A stretch of 36,479 bases of DNA from an uncultured bacterium (GCA_964489755.1 CAZBBE010000002.1:1-36479), one strand, 5' to 3'. Numbered from the stretch's first letter, positions 2,771 through 36,418 are shown. Translations and numbers: made by a program. The notes: generated from the sequence alone by a model not told the origin.

Positions 2771-4144
2771 ATGAATCAAAAACAATTAAAAACATTGCCT
2801 TCTATATCTGAAGTATTACTTGAGATAAAACGGTTAACAGACTTTGACCAAAGAATATTAATTCTTTGGATTAATGAAATATTAGAGAAGTATCGATCCA
2901 GTGCTATAAAAGGTAAATTGAAGCAGGATAGAAAAGAAATTATTCAGAATACTGTTTCGACTGTTTTAGAAAAATCACAAGGGAGTTTAAGACCTGTTAT
3001 TAATGGAACGGGAATCGTTCTTCATACGGGTCTAGGACGGGCACCCATCCACCGTCAAGTAATTAAAAAAGCCTCAAAAATGATGGAAGGATACTCAAAT
3101 TTAGAATTCCAGTTGGAGTCCGGTAAGAGAGGAAATCGTCAGTCTCATGTATCCCATTATTTCAGAGCTATAACTGGTACAGAATCAGCTATGGTTGTGA
3201 ACAATAATGCAGCAGCAGTTTTATTGGGAATTAACACATTGGCGGAAAATAAGGAAGTAATCGTTTCCCGAGGTCAGGAAGTGGAAATAGGGGGATCATT
3301 CCGAATCCCTGACATCATAGAAAAAAGCAGCGGAATATTAATGGAAGTTGGAACTACTAATAGAACTCACAGAAAAGATGTCGAAAAAGCTATAAATTCC
3401 AAAACTGGACTATTACTTTGGGTTCACACATCTAATTATAAAATCCATGGATTTACCCAGGATTTATCTCTTAAAACCCTTGTGGAAATTGGGAGGAAAA
3501 AACGAATTCCGGTCATGGCGGATTTAGGCAGTGGTGCTCTTCAAAATATCTCAAATCTAGGGCTTCCCAAAGAATTTTCTGTTCAGGAAATTATAAAGAT
3601 AAAACCCCAACTCACTACTTTTTCAGGAGATAAATTATTGGGAGGACCCCAGGCAGGGATTATGTTAGGATCAAGAAGGCTAATTCAAAAATGCGGTCAA
3701 AATCCCCTTTACCGAACGGTAAGATGCGATAAATTAACGATTTCCTTATTAGATGAAACTTTAAAGTTATTGGGAAGAAAAAAACAGGTTAAACACAATT
3801 TAGCATTATCTTTATTGGCAACTTCTGGAAAACAATTAGTTCGGCGAGTAAATCAGCTGGTGGATTTACTCCCTCAAAACCTTGTTCGATCATTTGGTAT
3901 ATCTGCCATTGAAACAAAGGTTGAAGCAGGCAGTGGTTCACTTCCTGTAAAGACCTTACTAAGCGCTGCTCTGGTGTTTTCTTCAAAAAAAATCAAACCT
4001 ACAGCACTGGCGAAAAGATTCAGGAAAGGCAATCCTCCATTAATCGGATATATTCACAAGAATAAATTTTATATTGATTTTAAATCTGTTCTTCCCGAAC
4101 AGGATAAAATCATTATTCAGCTTATTCAGGATAGCCTTTCATGA
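2771..4144 (+). CDS. selA: L-seryl-tRNA(Sec) selenium transferase SelA
   Basis: Close block matches to E. coli SelA recalled from memory: PVINGTGIVLHTGLGRAP, VVNNNAAAVLL, VSRGQEVEIGGSFRIPD, EVGTTNRTH, VHTSNYKI.GFT, FSGDKLLGGPQAGI (PLP lysine), SGSLP. Confidence 0.93.
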   Translation: MNQKQLKTLPSISEVLLEIKRLTDFDQRILILWINEILEKYRSSAIKGKLKQDRKEIIQNTVSTVLEKSQGSLRPVINGTGIVLHTGLGRAPIHRQVIKKASKMMEGYSNLEFQLESGKRGNRQSHVSHYFRAITGTESAMVVNNNAAAVLLGINTLAENKEVIVSRGQEVEIGGSFRIPDIIEKSSGILMEVGTTNRTHRKDVEKAINSKTGLLLWVHTSNYKIHGFTQDLSLKTLVEIGRKKRIPVMADLGSGALQNISNLGLPKEFSVQEIIKIKPQLTTFSGDKLLGGPQAGIMLGSRRLIQKCGQNPLYRTVRCDKLTISLLDETLKLLGRKKQVKHNLALSLLATSGKQLVRRVNQLVDLLPQNLVRSFGISAIETKVEAGSGSLPVKTLLSAALVFSSKKIKPTALAKRFRKGNPPLIGYIHKNKFYIDFKSVLPEQDKIIIQLIQDSLS

Positions 4145-6021
4145 ATCAGATTGTCATCGGTACTGCAGGGCATATTGATCATGGCAAAACAGCCCTTGTG
4201 AAAGCCCTAACCGGAGTAGATACCGATAGATTAGTTGAGGAGCAGAAACGGGGAATGACCATTGATTTAGGATTTGCATTTTTAAATGACCGTATTACCA
4301 TTATTGACGTTCCCGGTCATGAACGCTTTATACGGAATATGGTAGCAGGTGTATCTACCATTGATTTTGTAATCTTGGTGATAGCCTTGGATGATGGAAT
4401 GATGCCCCAAACCATGGAGCATTTAAACATAATTGATTTATTGAGGATTCCTGATGGCGTTATAGTTTTAACCAAATCTGATTTAATCAAGGATGGTCAA
4501 TGGGTGGATTTGGTTAAAGAAGAAATAAAGGAAAAGACTGAAGGAACCATTTTAGAAGGTAAACCCATCATTAAGACTTCAGTTAACACCAATGAAGGAA
4601 TTAAGGAATTATATGATCTACTGAGTTCTTTGGAAGGAGTTAAGGTTAAATCCCAAAATGATGAAAATTTCAGATTACAGATTGATCGAGTATTTCATAA
4701 AACCGGATATGGAATAATCCTCACCGGGACGGTACTCTCTGGAAATCTGACAATTGGGTCATCAGTTGGAGTTCAACCCTCAAATAAAACGGGGAAAGTA
4801 AGGGGACTTCAGAGTCATGGTGAACCGGTTGATTTTGTTTCGAAGGGAGATAGGGCAGCTGTTAATTTGACTGGAATTGAATTGGCGCATGTCTGGCGTG
4901 GTTCGGAACTTGTGACACCTAAGTCCATTCAAGCAACTCATCGAGCCATTGTCCATATAGAATTAATTGAAACTACAAAATGGAAATTAAAAACCCAGCA
5001 ACATATTCGGATCCATTTAGGAACATCGGAATCATTGGCTAAGATTGTTTATATCCCTAAAACAATTTCTGCCGGAGAATCCATAAACGCAGTTTTGGAA
5101 TTTAATAAACCGGTTACTACAGCATTGGATGATCGTTTTATTATACGGGCTTATTCCCCCATGGATACAATTGGAGGAGGAAAAATTTTGGATAAAGATC
5201 CAGAAGGAAATTGGAAAAAAATCAAAGTTCAATGTCAACGGTTATCGAAACAGGTGTCAGAACGTTTCTCTCAATTTATTACCTACTCAGACAATGTACC
5301 AAAATCAGTAGAATTTTGGGCTGATAAATTTTCAAAATCCAAGGAGTACATCCATCAATTGGTTGAATCCAATCAGTTAGTTAATAAAAAAAATATGGTG
5401 TTTTCTGAAAAGGGAAAAGATTTTTCAAAAAAAGCGATTTTAGATTACTTAACTGATTTTTATGAGAAGAATCCATATCGTGCATATATTAATTCGGAAT
5501 CTGTGCGGAATGAGTTAGGCTTCAGTCGATCCTGGTACGATTATATTGTTTCAAAATTAGATGGAAAGGAAATAACACTTCAAAAAGGCGGATTGACGCT
5601 AAAATCTCACAAAATTGAATTGTCCAAAAAGGATAAAAAAAGTTTGGAGCAAATTAAACATATCTTGTCCAAAATTCAATTTCTCCCCGTGTCATTAAAA
5701 GATATTGAAGAAAAGATCCAATGTGAATCTGATCAGATTCTTGAATTACTGCATGTGTTAAAACGTCAGGGATATTCACTAGATATTTCAAATCAACTGT
5801 GGATGAGTAGACCTGATTTGGATAGATTGATTGAAAAACTTGATGAGTACTATATTTCGAATGAAATTTTAAGTGTAGGAAAATTTAAATCAATGACGAA
5901 TCTTACACGAAAAACTGCTATTCCTCTTCTGGAATATTTAGATAAATCTGGTATTACATTCCGGAGGGGAAATGAACGTATTCAGGGATCAAAATTTCCC
6001 TCAAAACAAGAACGGGTGTGA
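4141..6021 (+). CDS. selB: Selenocysteine-specific translation elongation factor SelB
   Basis: N-terminal GTPase (GTAGHIDHGKTALVKALTG.DTDRL.EE..RGMTIDLGFA, DVPGHERF, TKSD). Long C-terminal extension of winged-helix type, 626 aa. ATGA overlap with the selA stop. Confidence 0.92.
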   Translation: MNQIVIGTAGHIDHGKTALVKALTGVDTDRLVEEQKRGMTIDLGFAFLNDRITIIDVPGHERFIRNMVAGVSTIDFVILVIALDDGMMPQTMEHLNIIDLLRIPDGVIVLTKSDLIKDGQWVDLVKEEIKEKTEGTILEGKPIIKTSVNTNEGIKELYDLLSSLEGVKVKSQNDENFRLQIDRVFHKTGYGIILTGTVLSGNLTIGSSVGVQPSNKTGKVRGLQSHGEPVDFVSKGDRAAVNLTGIELAHVWRGSELVTPKSIQATHRAIVHIELIETTKWKLKTQQHIRIHLGTSESLAKIVYIPKTISAGESINAVLEFNKPVTTALDDRFIIRAYSPMDTIGGGKILDKDPEGNWKKIKVQCQRLSKQVSERFSQFITYSDNVPKSVEFWADKFSKSKEYIHQLVESNQLVNKKNMVFSEKGKDFSKKAILDYLTDFYEKNPYRAYINSESVRNELGFSRSWYDYIVSKLDGKEITLQKGGLTLKSHKIELSKKDKKSLEQIKHILSKIQFLPVSLKDIEEKIQCESDQILELLHVLKRQGYSLDISNQLWMSRPDLDRLIEKLDEYYISNEILSVGKFKSMTNLTRKTAIPLLEYLDKSGITFRRGNERIQGSKFPSKQERV

Positions 6022-22216: not shown

Positions 22217-23185
22217 ATGAAATTTGCAAATCCCTGGTATTTATGTGCATTATTGCTCATTCCTCTAATGGAAATCTGGTATCGAAAATATGGCAAAAGC
22301 AAAGAAAGTGTCATAAATATATCTTCAAAAGAATTGATGATAGAATCTTTCATTACCGGTGGAAAATACAGACATTTGATTTTAAGAGTACTAGGTTTAA
22401 TTCTGTTATGTCTTATCATTCTTGGTCTTGCCAGGCCTCAACATGTGGACACATTAGAAAAAACCAAAGTGGAGGTAGTTGATATTGTTCTGGTTTTAGA
22501 TATTTCCAGCAGTATGCTGGCGGAAGATTTTAAACCCAATAGACTGGAAGCAGTCAAAAGAACTGCTGCACAATTTATCGAAAGTCGTTCCGGTGATAGA
22601 GTTGCATTGTTGGTCTTTGCTGGAGAAACATTTATTCAATGTCCTCTCACAGTTGATACGGAAGTTATTGGAAACTTATTAAGTGAAGTGACTGTTGCAG
22701 AGAGGGCTTATGACGGTACCGCAATCGGTATGGCAATTGTCAACGCAGTGAACAGACTTCGAGGAAGCACAGCCAAAAGTAAGGTAATGGTTCTGTTATC
22801 AGATGGAAGCAACAACGCTGGAGAACTGGACCCCCTGACAGCCGCAGATATTGCAACTGAATTTGACATAAAGATTTACACAATTGGAGCGGGAACAAAT
22901 CAGGCGACTACATTTATAACAAATCGAGGATATGTTAAAAATGAAATTGATGAAGAAACATTGAAAGAAATTGCCGCTCGAACTAAGGGCAAATATTTCC
23001 GTGCTACAGATGAGGAATCCCTGAGAGATGTTTATTCTGAAATTGACAATTTGGAGAGAACAGAAATTGAAGTAAAGGAATACACACGGTATAGGGAACT
23101 ATATAGTGTATTTTTTATTCCAGCATTGGTCATCGGCCTGTTCCATGAAATCTTGGAAAGGTTCATTTTTAAAAGAGGAATATAA
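22217..23185 (+). CDS. batA: BatA-type membrane-anchored von Willebrand factor A protein
   Basis: N-terminal F.NPW.L motif plus TM, a vWA MIDAS (DISSSM), a C-terminal TM, and its position in a batA-E-like cluster. Confidence 0.82.
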   Translation: MKFANPWYLCALLLIPLMEIWYRKYGKSKESVINISSKELMIESFITGGKYRHLILRVLGLILLCLIILGLARPQHVDTLEKTKVEVVDIVLVLDISSSMLAEDFKPNRLEAVKRTAAQFIESRSGDRVALLVFAGETFIQCPLTVDTEVIGNLLSEVTVAERAYDGTAIGMAIVNAVNRLRGSTAKSKVMVLLSDGSNNAGELDPLTAADIATEFDIKIYTIGAGTNQATTFITNRGYVKNEIDEETLKEIAARTKGKYFRATDEESLRDVYSEIDNLERTEIEVKEYTRYRELYSVFFIPALVIGLFHEILERFIFKRGI

Positions 23186-24204
23186 TGGATGTAAGATATC
23201 CCGTTGTATTTATCTTTCTGGTTGTGCTTGGCATTATCCTGTTTTTTGGAAAAAAAAGAAAGTCTATAACAAGTATGTTAAACATTCAATCTAACAATAT
23301 AAAAGACCAATTATTTGGAAATATAGATTTCAATAAGACAAATTGGCAAAAACGATGTCGTTTAGCGGGACTACTGTTTTTAATAATCTCTGCTTCTGGT
23401 ATCCAGATTGGGACACAAGTGAAACCGGTGGAGCGAAAAGGAGTTGATTTAATATTTTCTATGGATGTTTCCGTTAGTATGAATGCTGAAGACGTAAAAC
23501 CAAGCCGACTTGAAAAAGCAAAATTTGAGATTTCACAAATCATTCGCCAGCTCACAGGTGACCGTGTGGGAATCATCGTTTTTGCCGGAGCCAGTCACCT
23601 TTATTTACCCCTTACTTCTGATTACGAAGCCGCAATTTTATTTTTAAACGAGATAGATACGGAAATGATTTCCACACAGGGAACTGCCATCAGTTCTGCC
23701 CTTAATACGGGACTTTCTGCATTTTCAGATGAGAGTGAAAAATTCAAAGTATTAATTTTGGTCACGGATGGAGAGGACCATGAAGGAGAAGCAATTGGAA
23801 TTGCAGAAAAAGCAGCCCAGACCGGAATCATCATCCACACTGTCGGGGTTGGTTCCGTTTCGGGATCACTCATTCCGGTTTTGGATAAAGAAACAGGAGA
23901 CACGTCATACAAGAAAGATCGTCGGGGAAAATTTATTACATCCACCTTGAATGAAGGGGTCCTACAGAATATTGCCCGAGCAGGTAACGGTATTTATGTG
24001 CGATTTGACAATCGTGCAGCGAATTATAAGACAATCTCTCAAGAAATAAACCAGATGGAGAAAAAAACCATAAGCACTCATGAGTTTTCTGAATATGAGG
24101 ATCAATTTCAATTATTTGGAGTTATATCCTTATCCATGTTTTTAGCTGCATTTTTTATTCCGACAAAAAAAATAACTTCAAATGAGTCGGAGGAATTTAA
24201 TTGA
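23185..24204 (+). CDS. batB: BatB-type vWA protein
   Basis: TM, then vWA MIDAS (DVSVSM), VTDGEDHEG and a C-terminal TM. TAATG overlap with batA. Confidence 0.82.
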   Translation: MDVRYPVVFIFLVVLGIILFFGKKRKSITSMLNIQSNNIKDQLFGNIDFNKTNWQKRCRLAGLLFLIISASGIQIGTQVKPVERKGVDLIFSMDVSVSMNAEDVKPSRLEKAKFEISQIIRQLTGDRVGIIVFAGASHLYLPLTSDYEAAILFLNEIDTEMISTQGTAISSALNTGLSAFSDESEKFKVLILVTDGEDHEGEAIGIAEKAAQTGIIIHTVGVGSVSGSLIPVLDKETGDTSYKKDRRGKFITSTLNEGVLQNIARAGNGIYVRFDNRAANYKTISQEINQMEKKTISTHEFSEYEDQFQLFGVISLSMFLAAFFIPTKKITSNESEEFN

Positions 24205-25034
24205 AGTTTAATAGAATATTATTTTTAATCATTTTTTCTCTTTCGAGCACGATTTTAATAGCTGTTGATGATAAGGGTGTTCGCTATTTTAAGAATGGAG
24301 AATTTGAAAAAGCTCTGGGATATTATGAATCCATTTTGAGAAAACAAGTTGATAATAAAGAAGCGCAATTTGGATTAGGGACAACGTCATTTCAGACTCA
24401 GGACTTTATTGCATCTGAAGAAGCATTCAAGCAAGTATTGGAATCGGAAGATACTGAATTGCAATCTAAGGCGCATTACAACCTTGGCAATCTCTATTTT
24501 CAAAATCAGAAACTTGAAGAAAGTCTCGCCCATTATAAAAAATCAATTGAATTAAATCCTGCAGATCCAGAAGCAAAGTGGAATTATGAATTTGTTCAAA
24601 GAATGATGCAGGAACAATCTCAAAAAAACAAAGAATCGGATAATGACTCTCAGGAAAAAGACGAGAAAAACCCACAGGACAATCAATCACAAGATCAGAA
24701 GAAAGAGAAAAATAAAGAAAACCAGTCAGAAAAACAGAATGATGATGACTCTCAGGAAAACCATTCTGAACAAGCGGGAAAAAAAGAGCCAAACCAGGAA
24801 CAAAACAAGGATAAAAACACTAACAATTCACAAAAAGAAGATACAAATAACAAACCCCAGGAACAAATCCAACCCGAGCCAACCCCGGCTGAAAAGAATG
24901 AAGAAGGAGCCGATTCACTAAAAAACAAGATGAATGCGCAAGCCATTCTCAATGCATTAAAGGATAAAGAAAAAATTAATAAAAGACGCCAAATGAAAAA
25001 TGTGAAATCCAGAAAAACGGAAAAGGATTGGTAA
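24201..25034 (+). CDS. batC: BatC-type TPR protein with long Q/K/E/N-rich low-complexity tail
   Basis: Signal/anchor, TPR repeats (A..Y..S....P....A.F.LG...; HYNLGNLYF; Y.KSIELNP.D) and a charged low-complexity C-terminus. TTG start overlaps the batB stop. Confidence 0.7.
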   Translation: MKFNRILFLIIFSLSSTILIAVDDKGVRYFKNGEFEKALGYYESILRKQVDNKEAQFGLGTTSFQTQDFIASEEAFKQVLESEDTELQSKAHYNLGNLYFQNQKLEESLAHYKKSIELNPADPEAKWNYEFVQRMMQEQSQKNKESDNDSQEKDEKNPQDNQSQDQKKEKNKENQSEKQNDDDSQENHSEQAGKKEPNQEQNKDKNTNNSQKEDTNNKPQEQIQPEPTPAEKNEEGADSLKNKMNAQAILNALKDKEKINKRRQMKNVKSRKTEKDW

Positions 25035-25040
25035 CCAATT

Positions 25041-26786
25041 ATGAATCCAGTGGTTTATTTTTTGAAATATATTATTAATTATCTACCGTTATTGTTTGTT
25101 ATTCAATTGGCTTTTGGAGTAACTGTAAATGCAACGGTTGACCAAAATAAATTAACCTTAGATAATGTATTTGAATTCAAGGTTGATGCTATAGACGGTA
25201 GTGCATTACCACAGGTGGATATATCACCATTAAAGAAAAATTTTATAGTGGTAAACGGCCCCAGTCAGCAAACCAATATATCATGGATAAATGGGAAAAG
25301 GGCATCTATACATGGACTGTCCTGGACGTTATCTCCGAAGAAGATAGGAACATTATTTCTGCCCGCATTGACAGTGACCGTAGGAAAATCAAAACTCAAA
25401 ACAAAACCGATAAAATTACATGTATCAAAAAATCCTGTTAGTTCGAAATCAGGGAATTCCCAATCTTATTTTATTCGAGTGGAATTGGATAAGGATACAG
25501 CATTTTTAGGAGAACAAATCACTGTTACCTATCAATTATTTACCCGCACGGATTTATCCATAGAAAGTGTTGATTTACCTGAATTTGTTGGGTTTTGGAC
25601 GGAAAGTTTGTATTCTCCAAGACAGATAAATATGCGGGAGGTATCCTACAACGGAGTTCGATATAAAAAAGCAAAATTATATACTGTCGCTTTGTTTCCG
25701 ACGAAAATAGGAAAAATTACTATAGCTCCCTATACAATTAATTCAAAAGTCTATGTGGAGAATAAGAAATCAAAAAGGCGAGATCATTTTTTTGATGTTT
25801 TTGATTCATATTCTTCCAGGCAGGCGATTCGAAAAGTGATAAAATCTGAAACAAAAACAATTAATGTACTGCCATACCCTGATGGTAAACCTGATGATTT
25901 TACCGGAGCAGTGGGGAATTATACTGTTAAAACGTCCGTAGATGTTCAAAAGGTAAAAGCGAATGAAGCATTAACTTTTAATATCGAAGTGAAAGGAATG
26001 GGAAATCTTTCATTGTTCAGTTTGCCGGAATTAGCATTTCCAAAAACATTAGAGGTGTTTCCGCCGGTAAGTGAAATAAATAAAGATTCATTTCGCGATG
26101 AGATCTCGGGAACATTACAATGGGAGTATGTGGTTATTCCCCGTCAATCAGGTAGGTTTAATCTTCCTAGAGTAGAACTTCCTTTCTTTGACCCAAAGAC
26201 TACCACATGGAAAAGAGCTAAAGCTCACTCAATTCAGATTTCGGTTTCTCCCGGGTCTGTTCCCATCGGTTCTCCGGAGGGTTTAACAAAACAGGAGGTA
26301 GCACTGCTTGGGAAAGATATTCGTTATCACAGAACAACAGTACCCAAATGGAATCAGAAAAAACGTTTACCTATTGTGGCAGTTTTATTTTATTCTTTTG
26401 CTGTTTGTGGTTTTATTTTTCCCAGCATGGTAAACACCTACCAGAAAAAACACTTTGAAGGGATGGACGTACGCCAATCCAAAAAAGCGCTTAAAAAGGC
26501 GTTAAGTTCCCTTCAAAATTGGGGAGAGAATGAAATTGATATGAGTGCTTCCGTCCTTTATACATATTTAAAAGAAAAATTTTATCTCCAAACTGACAAG
26601 ATGGATCCAACCACGGTTCAGACAATTCTGGGAAATTATATCCCTGAACATGAAATGAATGAATTAATTCAGTTATTATACCGATGTGATGCGGGTCGTT
26701 TTTCTCCTCAAACGGTAACATTTAAAAATGATATTATCCCTGCCGCAATTTCTATTTTGAAGAAGATTGATAAATATGGCGTATAG
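25041..26786 (+). CDS. batD: BatD-type (oxygen-tolerance) protein
   Basis: 581 aa with a signal peptide, repeated beta-rich modules and a late TM segment (LPIVAVLFYSFAVCGFIF), as in BatD. Position in the cluster. Confidence 0.68.
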   Translation: MNPVVYFLKYIINYLPLLFVIQLAFGVTVNATVDQNKLTLDNVFEFKVDAIDGSALPQVDISPLKKNFIVVNGPSQQTNISWINGKRASIHGLSWTLSPKKIGTLFLPALTVTVGKSKLKTKPIKLHVSKNPVSSKSGNSQSYFIRVELDKDTAFLGEQITVTYQLFTRTDLSIESVDLPEFVGFWTESLYSPRQINMREVSYNGVRYKKAKLYTVALFPTKIGKITIAPYTINSKVYVENKKSKRRDHFFDVFDSYSSRQAIRKVIKSETKTINVLPYPDGKPDDFTGAVGNYTVKTSVDVQKVKANEALTFNIEVKGMGNLSLFSLPELAFPKTLEVFPPVSEINKDSFRDEISGTLQWEYVVIPRQSGRFNLPRVELPFFDPKTTTWKRAKAHSIQISVSPGSVPIGSPEGLTKQEVALLGKDIRYHRTTVPKWNQKKRLPIVAVLFYSFAVCGFIFPSMVNTYQKKHFEGMDVRQSKKALKKALSSLQNWGENEIDMSASVLYTYLKEKFYLQTDKMDPTTVQTILGNYIPEHEMNELIQLLYRCDAGRFSPQTVTFKNDIIPAAISILKKIDKYGV

Positions 26787-27513
26787 ATATATTATTTGTT
26801 TAGTCATATCCTTTGGATTAAGTCAAAATGCAGATTCATTATTTATGCAGGGCAGCTCTTATTTGGAATCAGGAAAATATGAGAAAGCGGTTGTGATGTT
26901 TGAAACAATATTAAATCAGGGATTTTTCCATGAAGATCTATACTATAATTTGGGAAATTCATACTACAGGTCAGGGAGTTATGGTCAAACAATTTGGGCT
27001 TACGAAAAAGCTATGGAATTAAATCCTCTGGATGGAGATACAAAATTCAATCTTGCCATTGCTAACACTTATGTAAAAGATCGAATTCCAGTCCCCGAAA
27101 CTCTTTTCCTTCTCAAGTGGTACAGGTTGCTCAAATCTTCTTTAACGTTTTCCCAATTTTTATCTATTTCAGCTTTATTTATTCTGTTGGCCTCGATTTA
27201 TTACCTTGTGGTCAAAGTTTTTCGAATTGATTTCAGTTGGCTTCCCTTTAAAATATTTTTATTTTGTTCATTTTTTCTACATGGGATTCTCCTCGATAAA
27301 TATTGGGAAATATCAGAAAAAAATGAAGGAATTATCACTGCTTATGAAGTGGAAGCATTCTCGGGTCCTTTTGTCCGCAGTGATGCTGTTTTATTCAAAA
27401 TGCATGAGGGGATTAAGGTATCCATTGACCATGACCAAGGAGGCTGGGTAGAAATATCATTATTGGATGGAAAAAAGGGTTGGATAAAAATCAATCAGTT
27501 GAGACTTTTATGA
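26776..27513 (+). CDS. batE: BatE-type TPR protein with C-terminal SH3-like domain
   Basis: TPR (YYNLGNSYYRSGSYGQTIWAYEKAMELNP.D), TM segments and a C-terminal SH3b-like stretch (GWVEISLLDGKKGWI). ATG 26776 is preferred over TTG 26767. Confidence 0.65.
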   Translation: MAYRYIICLVISFGLSQNADSLFMQGSSYLESGKYEKAVVMFETILNQGFFHEDLYYNLGNSYYRSGSYGQTIWAYEKAMELNPLDGDTKFNLAIANTYVKDRIPVPETLFLLKWYRLLKSSLTFSQFLSISALFILLASIYYLVVKVFRIDFSWLPFKIFLFCSFFLHGILLDKYWEISEKNEGIITAYEVEAFSGPFVRSDAVLFKMHEGIKVSIDHDQGGWVEISLLDGKKGWIKINQLRLL

Positions 27514-27980
27514 ACCAATCAGGAGAAAATTTCTTGAAATGGAGCATAATGATGTTAATTGTCACTACACTTTTCTGTCAGACGAAGGAAGAATTTGATT
27601 CGTCCCGACTGAAGGATATTCCACCGAAATGGCCTCAAATAAACCATTCTTTTATAAAACATAAACCAGCATATCTGGATTCTTCAGTTTTGTATACAGC
27701 GCTGAAGAAAATGGACGGATTTAGAGTCCAAGTTTTTGCGACCCGGTTTTCCCATTCTGCTGATAGTATGAAAGCTGTCCTGGAGGAAAGAGTAAATGAT
27801 GATGTGTTTATTGTCTTTGATGCTCCGGTTTACAAGATAAGAGTGGGAAACTTTGTCTCTCGGAATAAAGCAGAAAATATGAAAATAAGTTTAGTTAAAC
27901 ATGGTTATGATACCGCCTGGATAGTCCGTTCAAAAGTATTCGCTAGAAAATATCAGTTGATTGAGACGAGAAAACACTAA
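27510..27980 (+). CDS. SPOR (peptidoglycan-binding) domain protein
   Basis: TM anchor, then GFRVQVFATR....A..........DVFIVFDAPVYKIRVGNF..R..AE.....VKHGY..AWIV. ATGA overlap with the batE stop. Confidence 0.7.
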   Translation: MNQSGENFLKWSIMMLIVTTLFCQTKEEFDSSRLKDIPPKWPQINHSFIKHKPAYLDSSVLYTALKKMDGFRVQVFATRFSHSADSMKAVLEERVNDDVFIVFDAPVYKIRVGNFVSRNKAENMKISLVKHGYDTAWIVRSKVFARKYQLIETRKH

Positions 27981-28048
27981 TAACTTTTAAACTTGAATTT
28001 GTTTATTCGTGAACTTTTGAATTATTGTAAGATTCAACAAAATATTCT

Positions 28049-28121
28049 GGGGCCGTAGCTCAGTTGGGAGAGCGCCTGAATGGCATTCAGGAGGTCGTCG
28101 GTTCGATCCCGTCCGGCTCCA
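28049..28121 (+). tRNA. tRNA-Ala (anticodon GGC)
   Basis: Hand-folded cloverleaf: acceptor GGGGCCG/CGGCTCC with the G3:U70 Ala identity pair, anticodon loop AT-GGC-AT, T-loop TTCGATC, discriminator A. One U50-U64 mismatch in the T stem. CCA is not encoded. Confidence 0.9.
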
Positions 28122-28162
28122 CTGAATATTTTTAGTAAAAGTAGGATAGTATCGAAGGATAT

Positions 28163-28486
28163 ATGAGTGTGAATTCAAAATTGGTTTATTCGACAGATCC
28201 CGACCTGTGTTTAGATGGAAAAGAAACAAAAAATAATATTGCTAATTCTGATCAGGATTTACGCATTTGGTTGGAAAACAAACCTGGGGGGAAAAAAGCA
28301 ACCATAGTGCGGGGATTTAACGGTTCTAAAATGGAATTGAAAAAATTGGGTAAAATATTAAGATCTTTGTGCCACGTGGGAGGAACAGAAAAGAAAGGAG
28401 AAATCATGATACAGGGGAATGTAAGAAATCAGGTCTATGACTATTTAATTAAAAATGGATATAATGCTAAATTAAGCGGTGGATAA
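28163..28486 (+). CDS. yciH: SUI1/eIF1-family translation initiation factor YciH
   Basis: 107 aa: VYSTDPD..., GGKKATIVRGF, L.K.L...C..GGT.K.GEI.IQG..R..V...L...GY. Confidence 0.88.
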   Translation: MSVNSKLVYSTDPDLCLDGKETKNNIANSDQDLRIWLENKPGGKKATIVRGFNGSKMELKKLGKILRSLCHVGGTEKKGEIMIQGNVRNQVYDYLIKNGYNAKLSGG

Positions 28487-28512
28487 TAGGAAAATAAAAT
28501 TGAAAGGAAGTT

Positions 28513-29679
28513 ATGAATCATTTGAAAAATAAGAGCGGATTGGTCTTTACTCTCATCGTTTCAGGGTTATTTTTCTCCTGTACGGGTTCGGAAAAACGAG
28601 ACCTTAAGGGAACCCTATCTTTTGTCTTATCTGCTAATGTTAGGGCCCAATTCGACCCCTGCGGCTGAAAGAATAACCCTCTTGGCGGTCTGCCAAGAAA
28701 ATTAACATATATTAATGGGTTGAGAGAGCAGGGAAAAGATCCGGTAATTCTGGATGCAGGAGAGGTGTTGTTCACGTCGCCCCTTGTGTTGGATAACACT
28801 CGGTCTGCTGATGAATATAAAGCGAAAAATATCATCAAAGGGTATGAGGAGATTGGGTGTGATGCAATCAATATTGGAGGATATGAACTTGCTGGAGGCG
28901 TTAAATTTTTACAGAGCATAATGGATGCAACGGATATTCCATTTATTTCTGCAAATCTTCGTATTAAATCTACCGGAAAATTATTTACTGACCCATATGT
29001 GATTGTTGACCGTGAACCTTTCAGAATCGGCATCATTGGACTTACAAATCTTCTGAAGGATGGAAACAAGTATATCGTAATGGATGACATATATGATTCA
29101 GGGAAGAAATACATGAAGGAAATCCGGAGAAAAGCTGATTTAGTGGTCATACTGGTGAATGCTGACAAAAAAGAAAAACAGGTTTTGCAGGATGAGTTCA
29201 GGGATGCGGATTACATTGTGATGAGCAGGGATATATCTAGGACAAAACAGGGACAACCTCCGGCGAAAAATTTGCCACCAATTTATTGTCCCGGAAAGCA
29301 GGGGAAATACATGGCATTTATGGAAATGGACATTACTCACATTGACTCACCACACGTGGATGTCAGCTATTATAACAAGCAGATACAGACTTCTGAACGG
29401 CGGATTGCAAACTATCAAAAGAGGAACCCTGAGATACCTCTCAAAGAATTATATACGGAAAACCAAGCTATTTATAGTCAAATTGTGACCTTGGAAAAGC
29501 AAATGCTGGATGCCAAAAACACAATAGCCAATGCGAATAACAAGATAGAATTTGAACTGATCCCAATGAGCAGGAAGATCCCGGATGACCCGAAAATGCT
29601 TACATTTGTTGACGATATTTTATCAAAGGATAAACAATTAAGGGACAACTCTTTTTCACCTATTATTAAGAAGAAATGA
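28513..29679 (+). CDS. Predicted selenocysteine-containing lipoprotein (Sec52 encoded by TGA 28666-28668; C-G-U motif) with a degenerate 5'-nucleotidase/metallophosphatase-like N-domain
   Basis: ATG 28513 is in the same frame as listed ORF 28720-29679, with only one stop (TGA) between them. Signal peptide plus lipobox LFFSC lie upstream of the TGA. SECIS-like hairpin 11 nt downstream. The domain similarity spans the TGA. selA/selB are in the window. Confidence 0.75.
28666..28698 (+). promoter_or_regulatory. UGA(Sec) codon plus bacterial SECIS-like hairpin
   Basis: UGA, then an 11-nt spacer (AAGAAUAACCC), then stem U-CUUGGC (28680-28686) / GCCAAG-A (28692-28698) with apical loop GGUCU (28687-28691). 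Spacing and the G/U-containing loop resemble the E. coli fdhF SECIS. Confidence 0.7.
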
Positions 29680-30164
29680 CCATCGATTCCCCCCTGCGCC
29701 AAAGTGTGTTTATTCTAACCATTTCATCTATTTTTTCTATTGGCTATAATACCATACGTTTGGACAGTCTTGACCTCATCTATGAAAAGCCGGCGGACGC
29801 AGGAATTAGTAAACTTGACTCTCTTCTTGCTGCTGAGACCATTTTGGTTGCACCGGTTATGGTTGACCTTGAACTGGCGAAAAAGATGTACGACCTTGGT
29901 ATTATGTTTGTAGATGCACGGGATAAAGATGAATACGATGAAAGTCATATCACAGGGGCTATTCTTGAACCTACCATTGCAGGTGAATTAACAAAGAATT
30001 TTCCTCCAGACAAACCACTCATCACCTATTGTAGCGGGGGACACTGTGACTTGAGTTTTGAACTTGCAATGGAACTTATGGAAGAATGGAATTATGAAAA
30101 AGTGTTCGTCTATGAAGGGGGACTTCCGGAATGGGAAGAAGCTGGGTATCCGGTGCACAGGTAA
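29676..30164 (+). CDS. Membrane-anchored single-domain rhodanese-like sulfurtransferase
   Basis: N-terminal TM (VFILTISSIFSIGYNTI). Rhodanese domain FVDARDKDEYDESHI.GA, active-site loop YCSGGHCDLS, GG...W..AGYPV. ATGA overlap with the preceding selenoprotein gene. Confidence 0.85.
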   Translation: MTIDSPLRQSVFILTISSIFSIGYNTIRLDSLDLIYEKPADAGISKLDSLLAAETILVAPVMVDLELAKKMYDLGIMFVDARDKDEYDESHITGAILEPTIAGELTKNFPPDKPLITYCSGGHCDLSFELAMELMEEWNYEKVFVYEGGLPEWEEAGYPVHR

Positions 30165-30166
30165 GA

Positions 30167-30610
30167 ATGAATTATTTGCAAAACAAATGGATTTCTCTGG
30201 TATTCCGTCTCTTTTTAGGTGCGATGTTCATGTATGCCAGTTTGGATAAAATCAATGATCCAGAAACATTTTCAGGTGACATAAGAGCCTATCAAATTGT
30301 TCCGTTTGGATTGGAAAATTCTGTGGCTATCATTCTACCGTGGTTAGAACTATTGATTGGCATTGGCCTAGTTATCGGAGTTATGGTTGATGGTTCCGCT
30401 CTCATATCTATGGGTTTACTGGTGGTATTTATTATAGCTATCAGTTCTGCAATTTTACGAGGATATAACATTGATTGTGGATGTGGATTAAAAGAAGGGG
30501 AAGTAGTGGGTACCCAAAAATTGCTGGAAAATACTATTTTCTTTTTAATGGGATTGTTCATTATAAACAGACCCTCAACATTGTATGAAATTTTTCCTAA
30601 ATCGGATTGA
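30167..30610 (+). CDS. MauE/DoxX-family redox-associated membrane protein
   Basis: About 4 TM segments. RLFLGAMFMYASLDKI.DP..F...I.AY.I.P, LPWLELLIG and the family-typical G..IDCGCG motif. ATG 30167 lies 2 nt after the rhodanese stop; the ORF track starts it at 30131. Confidence 0.8.
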   Translation: MNYLQNKWISLVFRLFLGAMFMYASLDKINDPETFSGDIRAYQIVPFGLENSVAIILPWLELLIGIGLVIGVMVDGSALISMGLLVVFIIAISSAILRGYNIDCGCGLKEGEVVGTQKLLENTIFFLMGLFIINRPSTLYEIFPKSD

Positions 30611-30648
30611 CCAGAAGTAAATAAGACTTTAACTTTGGTCCCTAATTT

Positions 30649-30721
<73 letters not shown>

Positions 30722-30761
30722 CAATGCTCTGAATGGTGCATTTGTATTTTCATTTATACTG

Positions 30762-32849
30762 ATGTTTAAACAACCCTCAAACCAGATACTCGTGAAATAC
30801 CTTATATTTTCCATTATTTTATTTCTCTTTTCCAGCTGTTCACAAGAAGGGAAAAATCCGATCTTAATGTCAAGAGAAGAACCAATCAATTTTTCTTTGA
30901 CAACTGCTGATCACATTCTGGATGCCACGGATCATGTCCTTTATAAGGCAAATAGAATATTGAAAAATATTTATAAAATTGGACCATCCCAAAAATCATT
31001 TAAAAACACACTTCTTCCATTAGACGATATGGGCAATATTATTGAAAATGTATGGAGTCCTGTCAGTCTGCTGGCATTTACTCACCCAGATAATGGCATA
31101 AGGGATGCAGGGCTCAAAGCCAGTCAGAAAATTGAGGAATTTCTCAATTCTATTTCAGTGGATGAAAAACTGTATAATGCAATTGATGTTTTTTCTAAAA
31201 ATGCCAATGGAAAAATGCTTTCAGGTTTGGAGAAGAAATTTTTAGTCGAAACACTTAGGGATTTTAACCGTAGTGGTTTTGGTCATGGTGAAAGAGTGCG
31301 AAATCGAGTAAAAACCATTTTAGATCAATTAACTTCTTTAGGCTTGAAATTTGAAAAAAATATATCAGAATCCAAAGATACACTATTTCTAAAGGAACAC
31401 CATATGGTGGGACTCTCTGAAGATTATTGTGAAAATCGAAAAAAAGAAAACGGTATTTATACGATTGATCTGTCTTACCCAAGTTATTTACCATTTATGA
31501 AATATGCAGAATCCGACAGTGCCAGGAAAGCTCTTCGTTTTATGTATTGGAATCGTGCATCGGATAAAAATCTTTCGATCTTGGATTCGTTAATTCTTAT
31601 TAGAAATCAATTAGCTGAAATATTGGATTATCCCTCATATGCGGATTACGCTACAGAAATATTGATGTCGGAAAATGCAAACCGTGTTTGGGAATTTGAG
31701 AAATCCCTACATGAAATGATTATGCCAAAGGCTTTGGATGATTACAATAGAATGCTGGAAATGAAATCTCATGAAACCGGAAGATATGAATCAGTGATTG
31801 AATCTTGGGAATATGATCGATATGAACATTTACTGAAACTGAAACAGTTCCGTTTGGATAGCAAAAAGATCAGCGAATATTTTGAATTAACTGGGGTAAT
31901 AAACGGATTATTTGAAATTTGCACCCAATTGTTTGGAATTGAATTCAGTCAGATTGATAATCCATCTGTCTGGCATGAAGAAGTGACCCTATATGAGGTT
32001 TATGAGAAAGCTGACAGTATTTTAATAGGAAGGTTTTATCTGGATTTATTTCCCCGGGCTGACAAATATTCCCATGCTGCAGCTTTTAGTGTCACCATGG
32101 GTAAACTATTGGAGAACGAATACCAGATACCTGCAACAGCATTGGTATGCAATTTTCCTCCTCCACAGAATGGAAAACCCTCTCTTTTACCCCATGAGGA
32201 TGTGGAAACATTTTTCCACGAATTCGGGCATTTACTACATGATATACTGACCGTGTCTCCCTTACAATATTATTCTGGGACCAGTGTTTTACAGGATTTT
32301 GTGGAGGCTCCATCCCAAATCCTGGAGAATTGGGTTTGGGAAAAGGAGATTTTAAAATTGTTTGCCCATCATTATGAAACAGGAGAAGTGATTCCTGACA
32401 GATTAGTCAATAAAATGATTGCGGCGAAAAATGTGAATTCAGGTCTTAACACGCTACAGCAAATATTTTACGGTGTTTATGATTTCACTCTTCATGATGA
32501 ATTTGATCCTTTTGGAGAATTTAATACAACAGATCTTGCTGAATTACTACAGAACGAAATCACTTTATATCCCTATCTTGATGGAACTCACATGCAAGCG
32601 TCATTTGGTCATTTGGTAGGATATGAAGCAGCATATTATGGTTATTTATGGTCTAAAGTGTATGCTCAGGATATGTATTCAGTTTTTAAGAAAAATGGCA
32701 TTCTTGACCCGGAGACAGGCAGACGATTTCGAAAAGTAATTTTTGAACCAGGAGGAACGGTTCATCCTAAATTCCTGATTCAAGAGTTTTTAGGAAGGGA
32801 ACCAAACATGGATGCATTTTTGACCAGTCTGGGAATCCAGCCAAATTGA
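30762..32849 (+). CDS. M3-family zinc metallo-oligopeptidase (thimet oligopeptidase/Dcp-like), probable lipoprotein
   Basis: HEFGHLLH zinc motif with a downstream E (FVEAPSQ). About 695 aa, typical of M3A. N-terminal signal with lipobox LFSSC. Confidence 0.88.
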   Translation: MFKQPSNQILVKYLIFSIILFLFSSCSQEGKNPILMSREEPINFSLTTADHILDATDHVLYKANRILKNIYKIGPSQKSFKNTLLPLDDMGNIIENVWSPVSLLAFTHPDNGIRDAGLKASQKIEEFLNSISVDEKLYNAIDVFSKNANGKMLSGLEKKFLVETLRDFNRSGFGHGERVRNRVKTILDQLTSLGLKFEKNISESKDTLFLKEHHMVGLSEDYCENRKKENGIYTIDLSYPSYLPFMKYAESDSARKALRFMYWNRASDKNLSILDSLILIRNQLAEILDYPSYADYATEILMSENANRVWEFEKSLHEMIMPKALDDYNRMLEMKSHETGRYESVIESWEYDRYEHLLKLKQFRLDSKKISEYFELTGVINGLFEICTQLFGIEFSQIDNPSVWHEEVTLYEVYEKADSILIGRFYLDLFPRADKYSHAAAFSVTMGKLLENEYQIPATALVCNFPPPQNGKPSLLPHEDVETFFHEFGHLLHDILTVSPLQYYSGTSVLQDFVEAPSQILENWVWEKEILKLFAHHYETGEVIPDRLVNKMIAAKNVNSGLNTLQQIFYGVYDFTLHDEFDPFGEFNTTDLAELLQNEITLYPYLDGTHMQASFGHLVGYEAAYYGYLWSKVYAQDMYSVFKKNGILDPETGRRFRKVIFEPGGTVHPKFLIQEFLGREPNMDAFLTSLGIQPN

Positions 32850-36136: not shown

Positions 36137-36210
36137 GGCGTCGTACCCAAGTGGCTTAAGGGGGCGGTTTGCAAAACCGTTATTCACCGGTTCGAATCCG
36201 GTCGACGCCT
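36137..36210 (+). tRNA. tRNA-Cys (anticodon GCA)
   Basis: Acceptor GGCGTCG/CGACGCC, discriminator T (U73 Cys identity), A13-A22 mismatch in the D stem as in E. coli tRNA-Cys, anticodon loop TT-GCA-AA, T-loop TTCGAAT. Confidence 0.9.
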
Positions 36211-36225
36211 CTCTATATTATTGAT

Positions 36226-36310
36226 GCCCGGGTGGTGGAATTGGTAGACACAAGGGACTTAAAATCCCTCGGATGTATAATCCGTGACGGTTCGAGTCCG
36301 TCCCCGGGTA
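36226..36310 (+). tRNA. tRNA-Leu (anticodon TAA)
   Basis: Acceptor GCCCGGG/CCCGGGT, anticodon stem AGGGA/TCCCT with loop CT-TAA-AA, long variable arm (CGGAT-GTATA-ATCCG), T-arm GACGG-TTCGAGT-CCGTC, discriminator A. Confidence 0.92.
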
Positions 36311-36418
36311 CTTTCTAAAATACCCACTCATCTTGTTTTAGCAGTAGTAGAGTTTGTGCAGAATATGAAAATGGTGTTTTTGAAATAGTTTTTTTAAAAA
36401 AATAATAAGGATATATTA

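Follow-up and report, generated by a model that had tools for sequence, protein, structure and literature searches.

A UshA-like selenoprotein of Marinimicrobia with a Cys-Gly-Sec loop, a candidate redox centre, on a metallophosphatase fold without metal ligands

What work is left for a protein that keeps the fold of a 5'-nucleotidase, has lost the metal ligands of such enzymes, and carries a selenocysteine (Sec) in a loop directly after the first ligand strand? The question is raised by a gene at positions 28513..29679 (plus strand) of a 36,479-nt stretch of DNA from an uncultured bacterium (GCA_964489755.1 CAZBBE010000002.1:1-36479), which was analysed as a whole and is called the window below. 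The gene, which encodes a UshA-like selenoprotein, has 388 codons and a stop, with one in-frame TGA read through. The answer that we favour, with moderate confidence, is that the product is an exported UshA-like lipoprotein with a dead phosphatase fold, decoded with Sec, whose C-G-U loop would act as a redox centre together with partner proteins.

Two open reading frames (ORFs), 28513..28668 and 28720..29679, lie in a common frame and are linked through the single TGA at 28666-28668 (codon 52). The read-through product has 388 amino acids (MNHLKNK...FDPCG-U-KNNPLGG...), and the sequence around Sec is ...LSFVLSANVRAQFDPCG-U-KNNPLGGLPRK...; the codons TGC GGC TGA (28660..28668, plus strand) encode Cys50-Gly51-Sec52 in a D-P-C-G-U loop. 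We compared 70 related loci, four obtained by looking up exact proteins and 66 by scanning a single genome for each species, which comprise 64 loci of Marinimicrobia (Neomarinimicrobiota/Fidelibacterota) and six of Thermodesulfobacteriota-type metagenome-assembled genomes (MAGs). The TGA stands at the identical codon in 70/70 loci from these two phyla, at identities to the query down to 26-36%, and coding is conserved on both sides of it. In the full-length forms S40, Q46, D48, P49, C50 and G51 before the TGA and K53, N55, P56, G58 and G59 after it are invariant. The initial annotation of this locus, made from the sequence alone, had proposed a survey of the homologues for CGC versus CGU; such a survey found Cys in place of Sec (CGC) in nine remote relatives (P0139, P0157, P0159, P0181, P0189, P0224, P0236, P0252, and P0264).

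A bacterial hairpin resembling a selenocysteine insertion sequence (SECIS), with a 7-bp stem and a GGUCU loop, occupies 28680..28698 (plus strand) and begins 11 nt after the UGA. In the alignment of 27 distinct sequences 89.9% of the cells are paired and the GGUCU loop is invariant; columns 24/36 contain nine GC, eight AU, six UA, one CG, two GU and one UG pairs and no unpaired cell. The covariation score of 0.328 is higher than in any of the 500 shuffles or the slid controls, and it is this covariation that makes the hairpin convincing, not the fold of a single sequence downstream of the UGA, which has a z-score of only -0.75. None of the SECIS families in Rfam matched the hairpin; an overlapping Rfam match to manA was far below threshold (21.5 vs 55.2 bits) and was treated as chance. 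The spacing and the GGUC-type loop resemble, as we take it, those of the Escherichia coli fdhF element. The codons within the loop specify G-G-L, part of the GGxxR motif of 5'-nucleotidases, so that the RNA element overlies a protein motif that is ancestral. Elsewhere in the window are selA (2771..4144, plus strand; Pfam SelA 4.8e-126) and selB (4141..6021, plus strand; Pfam GTP_EFTU 9.9e-31, SelB-wing_3 3.3e-15, Beta-barrel_SelB 1.5e-10), which adjoin each other and precede the selenoprotein gene by about 22 kb, whereas selD and tRNA-Sec were not found within the 36 kb of the window. As judged from these sequences, the TGA at codon 52 is selenocysteine, with the hairpin and the window-encoded SelA and SelB as its predicted decoding apparatus.

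The reading frame opens with a signal peptide (28513..28581, plus strand), whose lipobox-like end, L-F-F-S-C with Cys23, was read directly from the sequence. Nearly all of the 55 distinct sequences from the window and the main Marinimicrobia clades have a Cys closing the signal peptide; 38 of the 55 follow the strict lipobox pattern and the remainder are variants such as WSC and WNC. A lipobox-type Cys was not found in the Thermodesulfobacteriota forms or in a second Marinimicrobia paralogue, called paralogue-2 (L047, L048, L057-L059, L063, L064), which reads DPCGU-KKKP or -PKKP and has neither a lipobox nor a His tail. Seven Marinimicrobia MAGs gave two loci each, one of which is usually this second paralogue.

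The initial annotation had recognised the N-domain of UshA-type 5'-nucleotidases at 28579-29100, that is, in residues 23-196, the bulk of the N-terminal domain. Our comparisons bear this out and place the metallophosphatase (5'-nucleotidase N-domain) fold, without its metal ligands, at 28609..29364 (plus strand; residues about 33-284). The four blocks that had been aligned by eye with E. coli UshA were all reproduced by HMMER and hhalign: LSFVLSANVRAQ with ITVLHTNDHHGH, VILDAGEV with LLLSGGDI, GCDAINIGGYEL with GYDAMAIGNHEF, and IPFISANLRIKSTGKLF..RIGIIGLT with FPLLSANIYQKSTGERLF..KIAVIGLT. Against the Protein Data Bank (PDB), phmmer found CpdB (3jyf, E=2.2e-9) and UshA (1hp1, E=2.9e-7), and a seven-sequence family profile reached 1.8e-14. 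An 89-sequence family alignment matched UshA residues 1-362 in hhalign with a probability of 99.35% (E=6.7e-21, 259 columns), and weaker NCBIfam matches were to the N-domains of CpdB, UshA, SoxB, and NadN. A Pfam scan found no domain in the selenoprotein; Metallophos and 5_nucleotid_C, the two families that the initial annotation had singled out for such a scan, are absent at E<=1. The structure model that we used is the AlphaFold2 model of the homologue P0023, which is 60-61% identical, belongs to the same degenerate-motif clade, and carries W at the Sec position from a code-4 gene call. This model has a predicted local distance difference test score (pLDDT) of 88.8 and a predicted TM-score (pTM) of 0.85, and Foldseek placed E. 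coli UshA at the top of its matches (E=4e-19, probability 1.0, about 290 columns). According to the alignments and the homologue model, the selenoprotein keeps the beta-sandwich of the 5'-nucleotidase N-domain.

Compared with UshA, CpdB, and CD73 (PDB 1ush, 3jyf, 4h2i), the window protein shares the N-domain fold and conserved blocks, including GGxxR, SAN, and GKY, but is without the dinuclear ligands, the His-Asp dyad, and the 5_nucleotid_C domain, and adds a C-G-U insertion after strand 1 and a helical hairpin near the C-terminus. In the hhalign register, D-P-C-G is an insertion relative to UshA directly after the first ligand strand, and C-G-U thus lies where the initial annotation had put it, in the loop that follows the first, formerly metal-binding, strand. 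The C-terminal region (29362..29643, plus strand), which matches no Pfam family, consists of a helix hairpin, one strand, and a final helix. In the P0023 model the helices span about 284-302 and 318-340, the strand rejoins the core sheet, and the last helix follows. The C-terminal third is, on this model, helical and not a nucleotidase C-domain, in keeping with the earlier view that it is unlike the substrate domain of 5'-nucleotidases.

The metal ligands and the catalytic dyad are gone from this fold, as shown by the hhalign map and the comparison between clades. With UshA precursor numbering mapped onto window protein numbering, the residues D41, H43, D84, N116, and H217 become N42, R44, E84, G123, and N216, the catalytic pair H117 and D120 becomes Y124 and A127, and, in a lower-confidence part of the alignment, H252 and Q254 become D240 and S242. 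The metallophosphatase motifs DxH, GD, GNH[DE], H, and GH are replaced by N-V-R, G-E, G-G-Y-E, N216, and S-R-D, respectively; the initial annotation had read the G-E and G-G-Y-E replacements correctly, but its V-R-A for DxH was off by one residue. No His ligand remains in the window clade, the main Marinimicrobia clade retains only the equivalents of H43 and D84, and the Thermodesulfobacteriota clade retains only D41, while nearly all Sec forms have Tyr, or now and then Phe, in place of the catalytic His. The substitutes differ from clade to clade (E/D at 84; G/H/K/Q at 123; D/S at 240), and this speaks against a new, conserved metal site. With both the metal ligands and the His-Asp pair lost, the selenoprotein should not hydrolyse phosphoesters. 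Among relatives that carry a fused cytochrome, P0192, P0215, and P0235 still show THxG and GGH motifs, and because some fused members keep these, ligand loss appears to have been stepwise across the family.

Another cysteine of this domain, Cys116 (IGC116DAIN, 28858..28860), stands in place of the canonical 5'-nucleotidase Tyr and occurs in 46 of the 55 window and main-clade sequences and in 13/13 sequences of paralogue-2 and Thermodesulfobacteriota. We considered adding Cys116 to the redox centre as its third residue and set the idea aside: its UshA counterpart, Y109, begins the strand that bears the GNH motif at its opposite end, and judging from this topology Cys116 is probably distant from the GNH site.

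The initial annotation did not know of a described selenoprotein family to which the protein belongs. This has to be corrected, because the family has been catalogued since 2008 (Zhang and Gladyshev) and has the NCBIfam entry NF041198. In the Global Ocean Sampling (GOS) survey, it is listed as 'COG0737, UshA-like', with the motif CxU, 76 Sec sequences in 20 samples, and 92 Cys homologues, and with these 76 sequences it ranks 13th by sequence count in the selenoproteome table (PMC2398784). Reviews of 2022 and 2026 relist the UshA-like family with NF041198 and add a second family, NF049981 (PMC9312934, PMC13188914). The GOS family and the window protein have in common a marine bacterial origin, homology to UshA, a CxU Sec motif, and Cys homologues, and at the level of the family definition, a listing in tables, there is no difference between them. 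By its homology to UshA and its C50-G51-U52, the window protein falls under this definition, and the family is therefore already known. It goes unmentioned in the Sargasso Sea paper of 2005 and in the Olavius paper of 2007.

NF041198 (UshA_like_PCGU, 'UshA-like (seleno)protein') is an equivalog of 519 positions with a cut-off of 275 bits. The window protein matches it with E=4.4e-61 over residues 19-379 (model positions 8-384, which include the C-terminal helical region), with the P-C-G-U motif, the degenerate UshA-like N-domain, and the helical region in common. Its score, however, is 207 bits, below the cut-off, as are those of the other Marinimicrobia forms (191-226 bits), whereas the Thermodesulfobacteriota protein L065 reaches 375 bits. 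The C-terminal domain of L065 contains four CxxCH motifs and resembles cytochrome c554, and this fusion is also seen in many database relatives 450-520 residues long; L065-L070, P0192, P0201, P0215, P0226, and P0235 are fused four-CxxCH members. The window protein has no CxxCH motif, leaves NF041198 positions of about 385-519 unmatched, and differs further in being a lipoprotein with rhodanese and MauE partners. Because they score below the cut-off and are without the fused cytochrome of the member that passes it, the Marinimicrobia proteins form a branch of the known family whose members are shorter and are lipoproteins. We found the family in dozens of Marinimicrobia genomes, of which several hold two copies, and what remains of interest is the function of a catalogued family and its partner modules. 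The available literature passages on the UshA-like family say nothing about function, ligand loss, or gene neighbours, and we found no description in them of the modular wiring or of a pseudo-phosphatase. Our literature search found no account of function, whether for the PCGU family, for selenocysteine in Marinimicrobia, or for MauE/DoxX with rhodanese.

Two co-oriented genes follow the selenoprotein gene and both encode candidate redox partners. A membrane-anchored rhodanese-domain protein (29676..30164, plus strand; Pfam Rhodanese 4.2e-15) has an ATG that overlaps the selenoprotein stop in the sequence ATGA (29676-29679). It has an N-terminal membrane helix, and from the charge distribution its rhodanese domain probably faces the periplasm. 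Both cysteines of its C119-x4-C124 motif (30030..30047) are present in 49/49 distinct neighbour sequences. A MauE/DoxX membrane protein (30131..30610, plus strand; Pfam MauE 1e-29, DoxX 2.5e-9) comes next, and its C116-G-C118 (30476..30484) lies in a CGCGL that is likewise found in 49/49 distinct neighbour sequences. As listed, the MauE/DoxX ORF overlaps the rhodanese gene by 34 nt; its start is probably the conserved Met13 at 30167, just past the rhodanese stop. About 50 of the 57 window and main-clade loci share the gene order SUI1/YciH, selenoprotein, rhodanese, MauE/DoxX, with outer flanks that differ. Three consecutive genes in this block each carry a dithiol or selenol-thiol motif. A promoter and terminator scan of 27900-30800 gave counts not above those of shuffles, and it carries no weight either way on co-transcription.

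Other lineages have other neighbours. In the seven paralogue-2 loci the context differs from the rhodanese/MauE order, and in both of those inspected, L047 and L048, a WCKPC thioredoxin of TlpA/ResA-like type lies directly upstream; the L047 thioredoxin matches ResA at 3.5e-17. In the cytochrome-fused loci inspected (L065, L067, L068), 3/3 have a multihaem cytochrome gene as a neighbour; one of these loci also has a cytochrome b, and nuoA/nuoB are nearby.

The rhodanese of the window gave weak matches to two families of rhodanese selenoproteins, NF041203 and TsoB (NF045694; 1.2e-8). TsoB is a selenoprotein in which rhodanese and DsbD are fused, with a Ux4U motif (PMC13188914). In both systems a rhodanese two-chalcogen loop is paired with a membrane redox protein, but here the two are separate genes, the partner is MauE/DoxX rather than DsbD, and Cys stands in place of Sec (Cx4C vs Ux4U). 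A rhodanese together with a membrane redox protein is reportedly also found in the DoxX-SseA membrane oxidoreductase complex of Mycobacterium tuberculosis, from work by Nambi and colleagues in 2015. In the literature passages available, no UshA-like protein was found described with either TsoB or DoxX-SseA.

The main argument for a redox centre is that three unrelated electron-transfer modules attach to one conserved C-G-U/C loop: the rhodanese and MauE/DoxX pair, the thioredoxin, and the fused cytochrome. From this arrangement of genes and domains we infer that Cys-Gly-Sec forms a redox centre in the periplasm and that the electron modules which feed it are interchangeable. The lipoprotein would be exported beyond the cytoplasm, and its working part would be the loop after strand 1, where D-P-C50-G-U52 could cycle between the selenol/thiol and selenenylsulfide states. 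Electrons would enter or leave through the two co-oriented downstream proteins, the membrane-anchored rhodanese (Cx4C), probably facing the periplasm, and the integral membrane protein MauE/DoxX (CGC); in other lineages, the TlpA/ResA-like thioredoxin or the C-terminally fused four-haem cytochrome c may fill the same job. The neighbouring rhodanese and the relationship to SoxB suggest, as a first guess, a substrate that contains sulfane sulfur or another chalcogen, for example polysulfide or compounds of the thiosulfate type or of selenium. The selenol/thiol redox role suggested in the initial annotation fits the Cx4C rhodanese, the CGC MauE/DoxX, the TlpA-like thioredoxin, and the fused cytochrome, and it is this context that speaks for it. 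The loss of the metal site and a C-G-U loop with three kinds of redox partner together point to periplasmic thiol/selenol electron transfer, which may be tied to sulfur cycling in oxygen-poor ocean water; the same two features make the function testable. More tentatively, the family might form a distinct extracytoplasmic selenoenzyme class, with a dead metallophosphatase fold around Cys-Gly-Sec and any of three interchangeable electron modules as its link to the membrane, which would serve the reduction or transfer of sulfane sulfur or another chalcogen in Marinimicrobia, bacteria abundant in the ocean; we rate this broader proposal as possible but doubtful.

Several observations weigh against a redox centre of this kind. 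The Sec loop has a pLDDT below 50 in the P0023 model. One Marinimicrobia subclade (L004, L022, L025, L031, L039, L041) has no rhodanese/MauE neighbours, and three Cys-form relatives showed no consistent neighbour partners. Both Cys and Sec are gone in four remote relatives (P0141, P0167, P0185, P0217), so the UshA-like fold also has a role without them. The authors of the GOS survey leave CxU out of the redox motifs (PMC2398784). A single hard metal ion might still be bound by E84, N42, N216, and D240. His-rich C-terminal tails, such as HSGHNH and HKHNHDHDHK, occur in 30 of the 55 window and main-clade members, with examples in L004, L005, L020, L036, P0023, and P0028-P0031.

Owing to these tails the main rival is a soft-metal or metalloid binding protein, namely a chaperone, sensor, or detoxifier, in which Cys-Gly-Sec would chelate an ion such as Cu(I), Hg(II), Zn, Ni, or As(III), in most relatives with the aid of the His-rich tail, and would have no redox turnover of its own. 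CxC motifs are metal sites in other proteins, which counts in its favour; tails of the type HxGHNH and similar are also present in the Cys form P0139, and the window MauE weakly matches (5.1e-5) HvfX, a DoxX relative named as a maturation protein of Cu-binding ribosomally synthesized and post-translationally modified peptides (RiPPs). The window protein and its closest relatives, however, have no His-rich tail, and the four-haem fusion, the thioredoxin, and the Cx4C/CGC pairing fit electron transfer better, so that we regard metal binding as unlikely. Less probable still is a protein that has remained a hydrolase, in which N42, E84, N216, and D240 would hold one Mg, Ca, or Mn ion and Sec would serve as nucleophile or acceptor in SoxB-like cleavage of phospho-, sulfo-, or thiosulfonate esters. 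SoxB (TIGR04486) belongs to the same superfamily, is periplasmic, and acts on sulfur compounds. The family matches it weakly but significantly, with 1.7e-6 in the case of the window protein and at best 3.6e-33, the value of the Cys form P0236, where DxH and GD are still present; a carboxylate is retained at position 84, and the rhodanese neighbour suggests sulfur chemistry. SoxB is, however, a dimanganese hydrolase with intact ligands, and all family scores are far under its cut-off of 550 bits. The window clade has other residues in place of every His ligand and of the His117/Asp120 pair, there is no Pfam Metallophos signal, and the clade-variable residues at 84, 123, and 240 are unlike a conserved metal site.

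Much further down in probability, to the point where we give it hardly any credence, lies the view that there is no selenoprotein at all, the TGA being a true stop between a short upstream ORF and a 319-aa protein, or part of a pseudogene. It has the public gene calls on its side: the public protein matches are mostly 300-340 residues long and begin right after the TGA (P0001-P0022 and many more). The 319-aa product, though, would be without both strand 1 of the fold and the signal peptide, and a stop is at odds with the TGA at the same codon in all 70 loci with invariant residues on both sides, with the covarying hairpin, with SelA and SelB in the window, and with Cys at the same position in remote homologues. 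So far as sequence analysis reaches, the TGA as a stop is refuted. A few public entries span the full length and show W where Sec belongs, probably the product of gene calls with genetic code 4, and most entries of P0001-P0120 and P0135-P0183 are either cut at the TGA or have W for Sec. In the Joint Genome Institute (JGI) data, family entries bear the name 2',3'-cyclic-nucleotide 2'-phosphodiesterase, which is unlikely to be right because the ligands are lost. The public annotation is thus poor, consisting of cut entries, a false W, or a phosphodiesterase activity that the protein almost certainly does not have.

Upstream of the selenoprotein, the SUI1/YciH-type gene (28163..28486, plus strand; Pfam SUI1 5.9e-18) precedes it by 26 nt in nearly all Marinimicrobia loci (L001-L062), and it is also found upstream in the subclade without rhodanese/MauE. 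The block from SUI1 to MauE is bracketed by tRNA-Ala(GGC) and tRNA-Gly(GCC) at 28049..28122 and 30649..30722, and tRNA-Cys and tRNA-Leu lie at the window end (36137..36311); long reverse-strand ORFs over the tRNA regions are artefacts of the tRNA genes. Further upstream of the block, at 22217..27513, an aerotolerance-type Bat operon (BatA/VWA, BatD, TPR) is followed by a SPOR-domain gene, and both are syntenic in the closest relatives.

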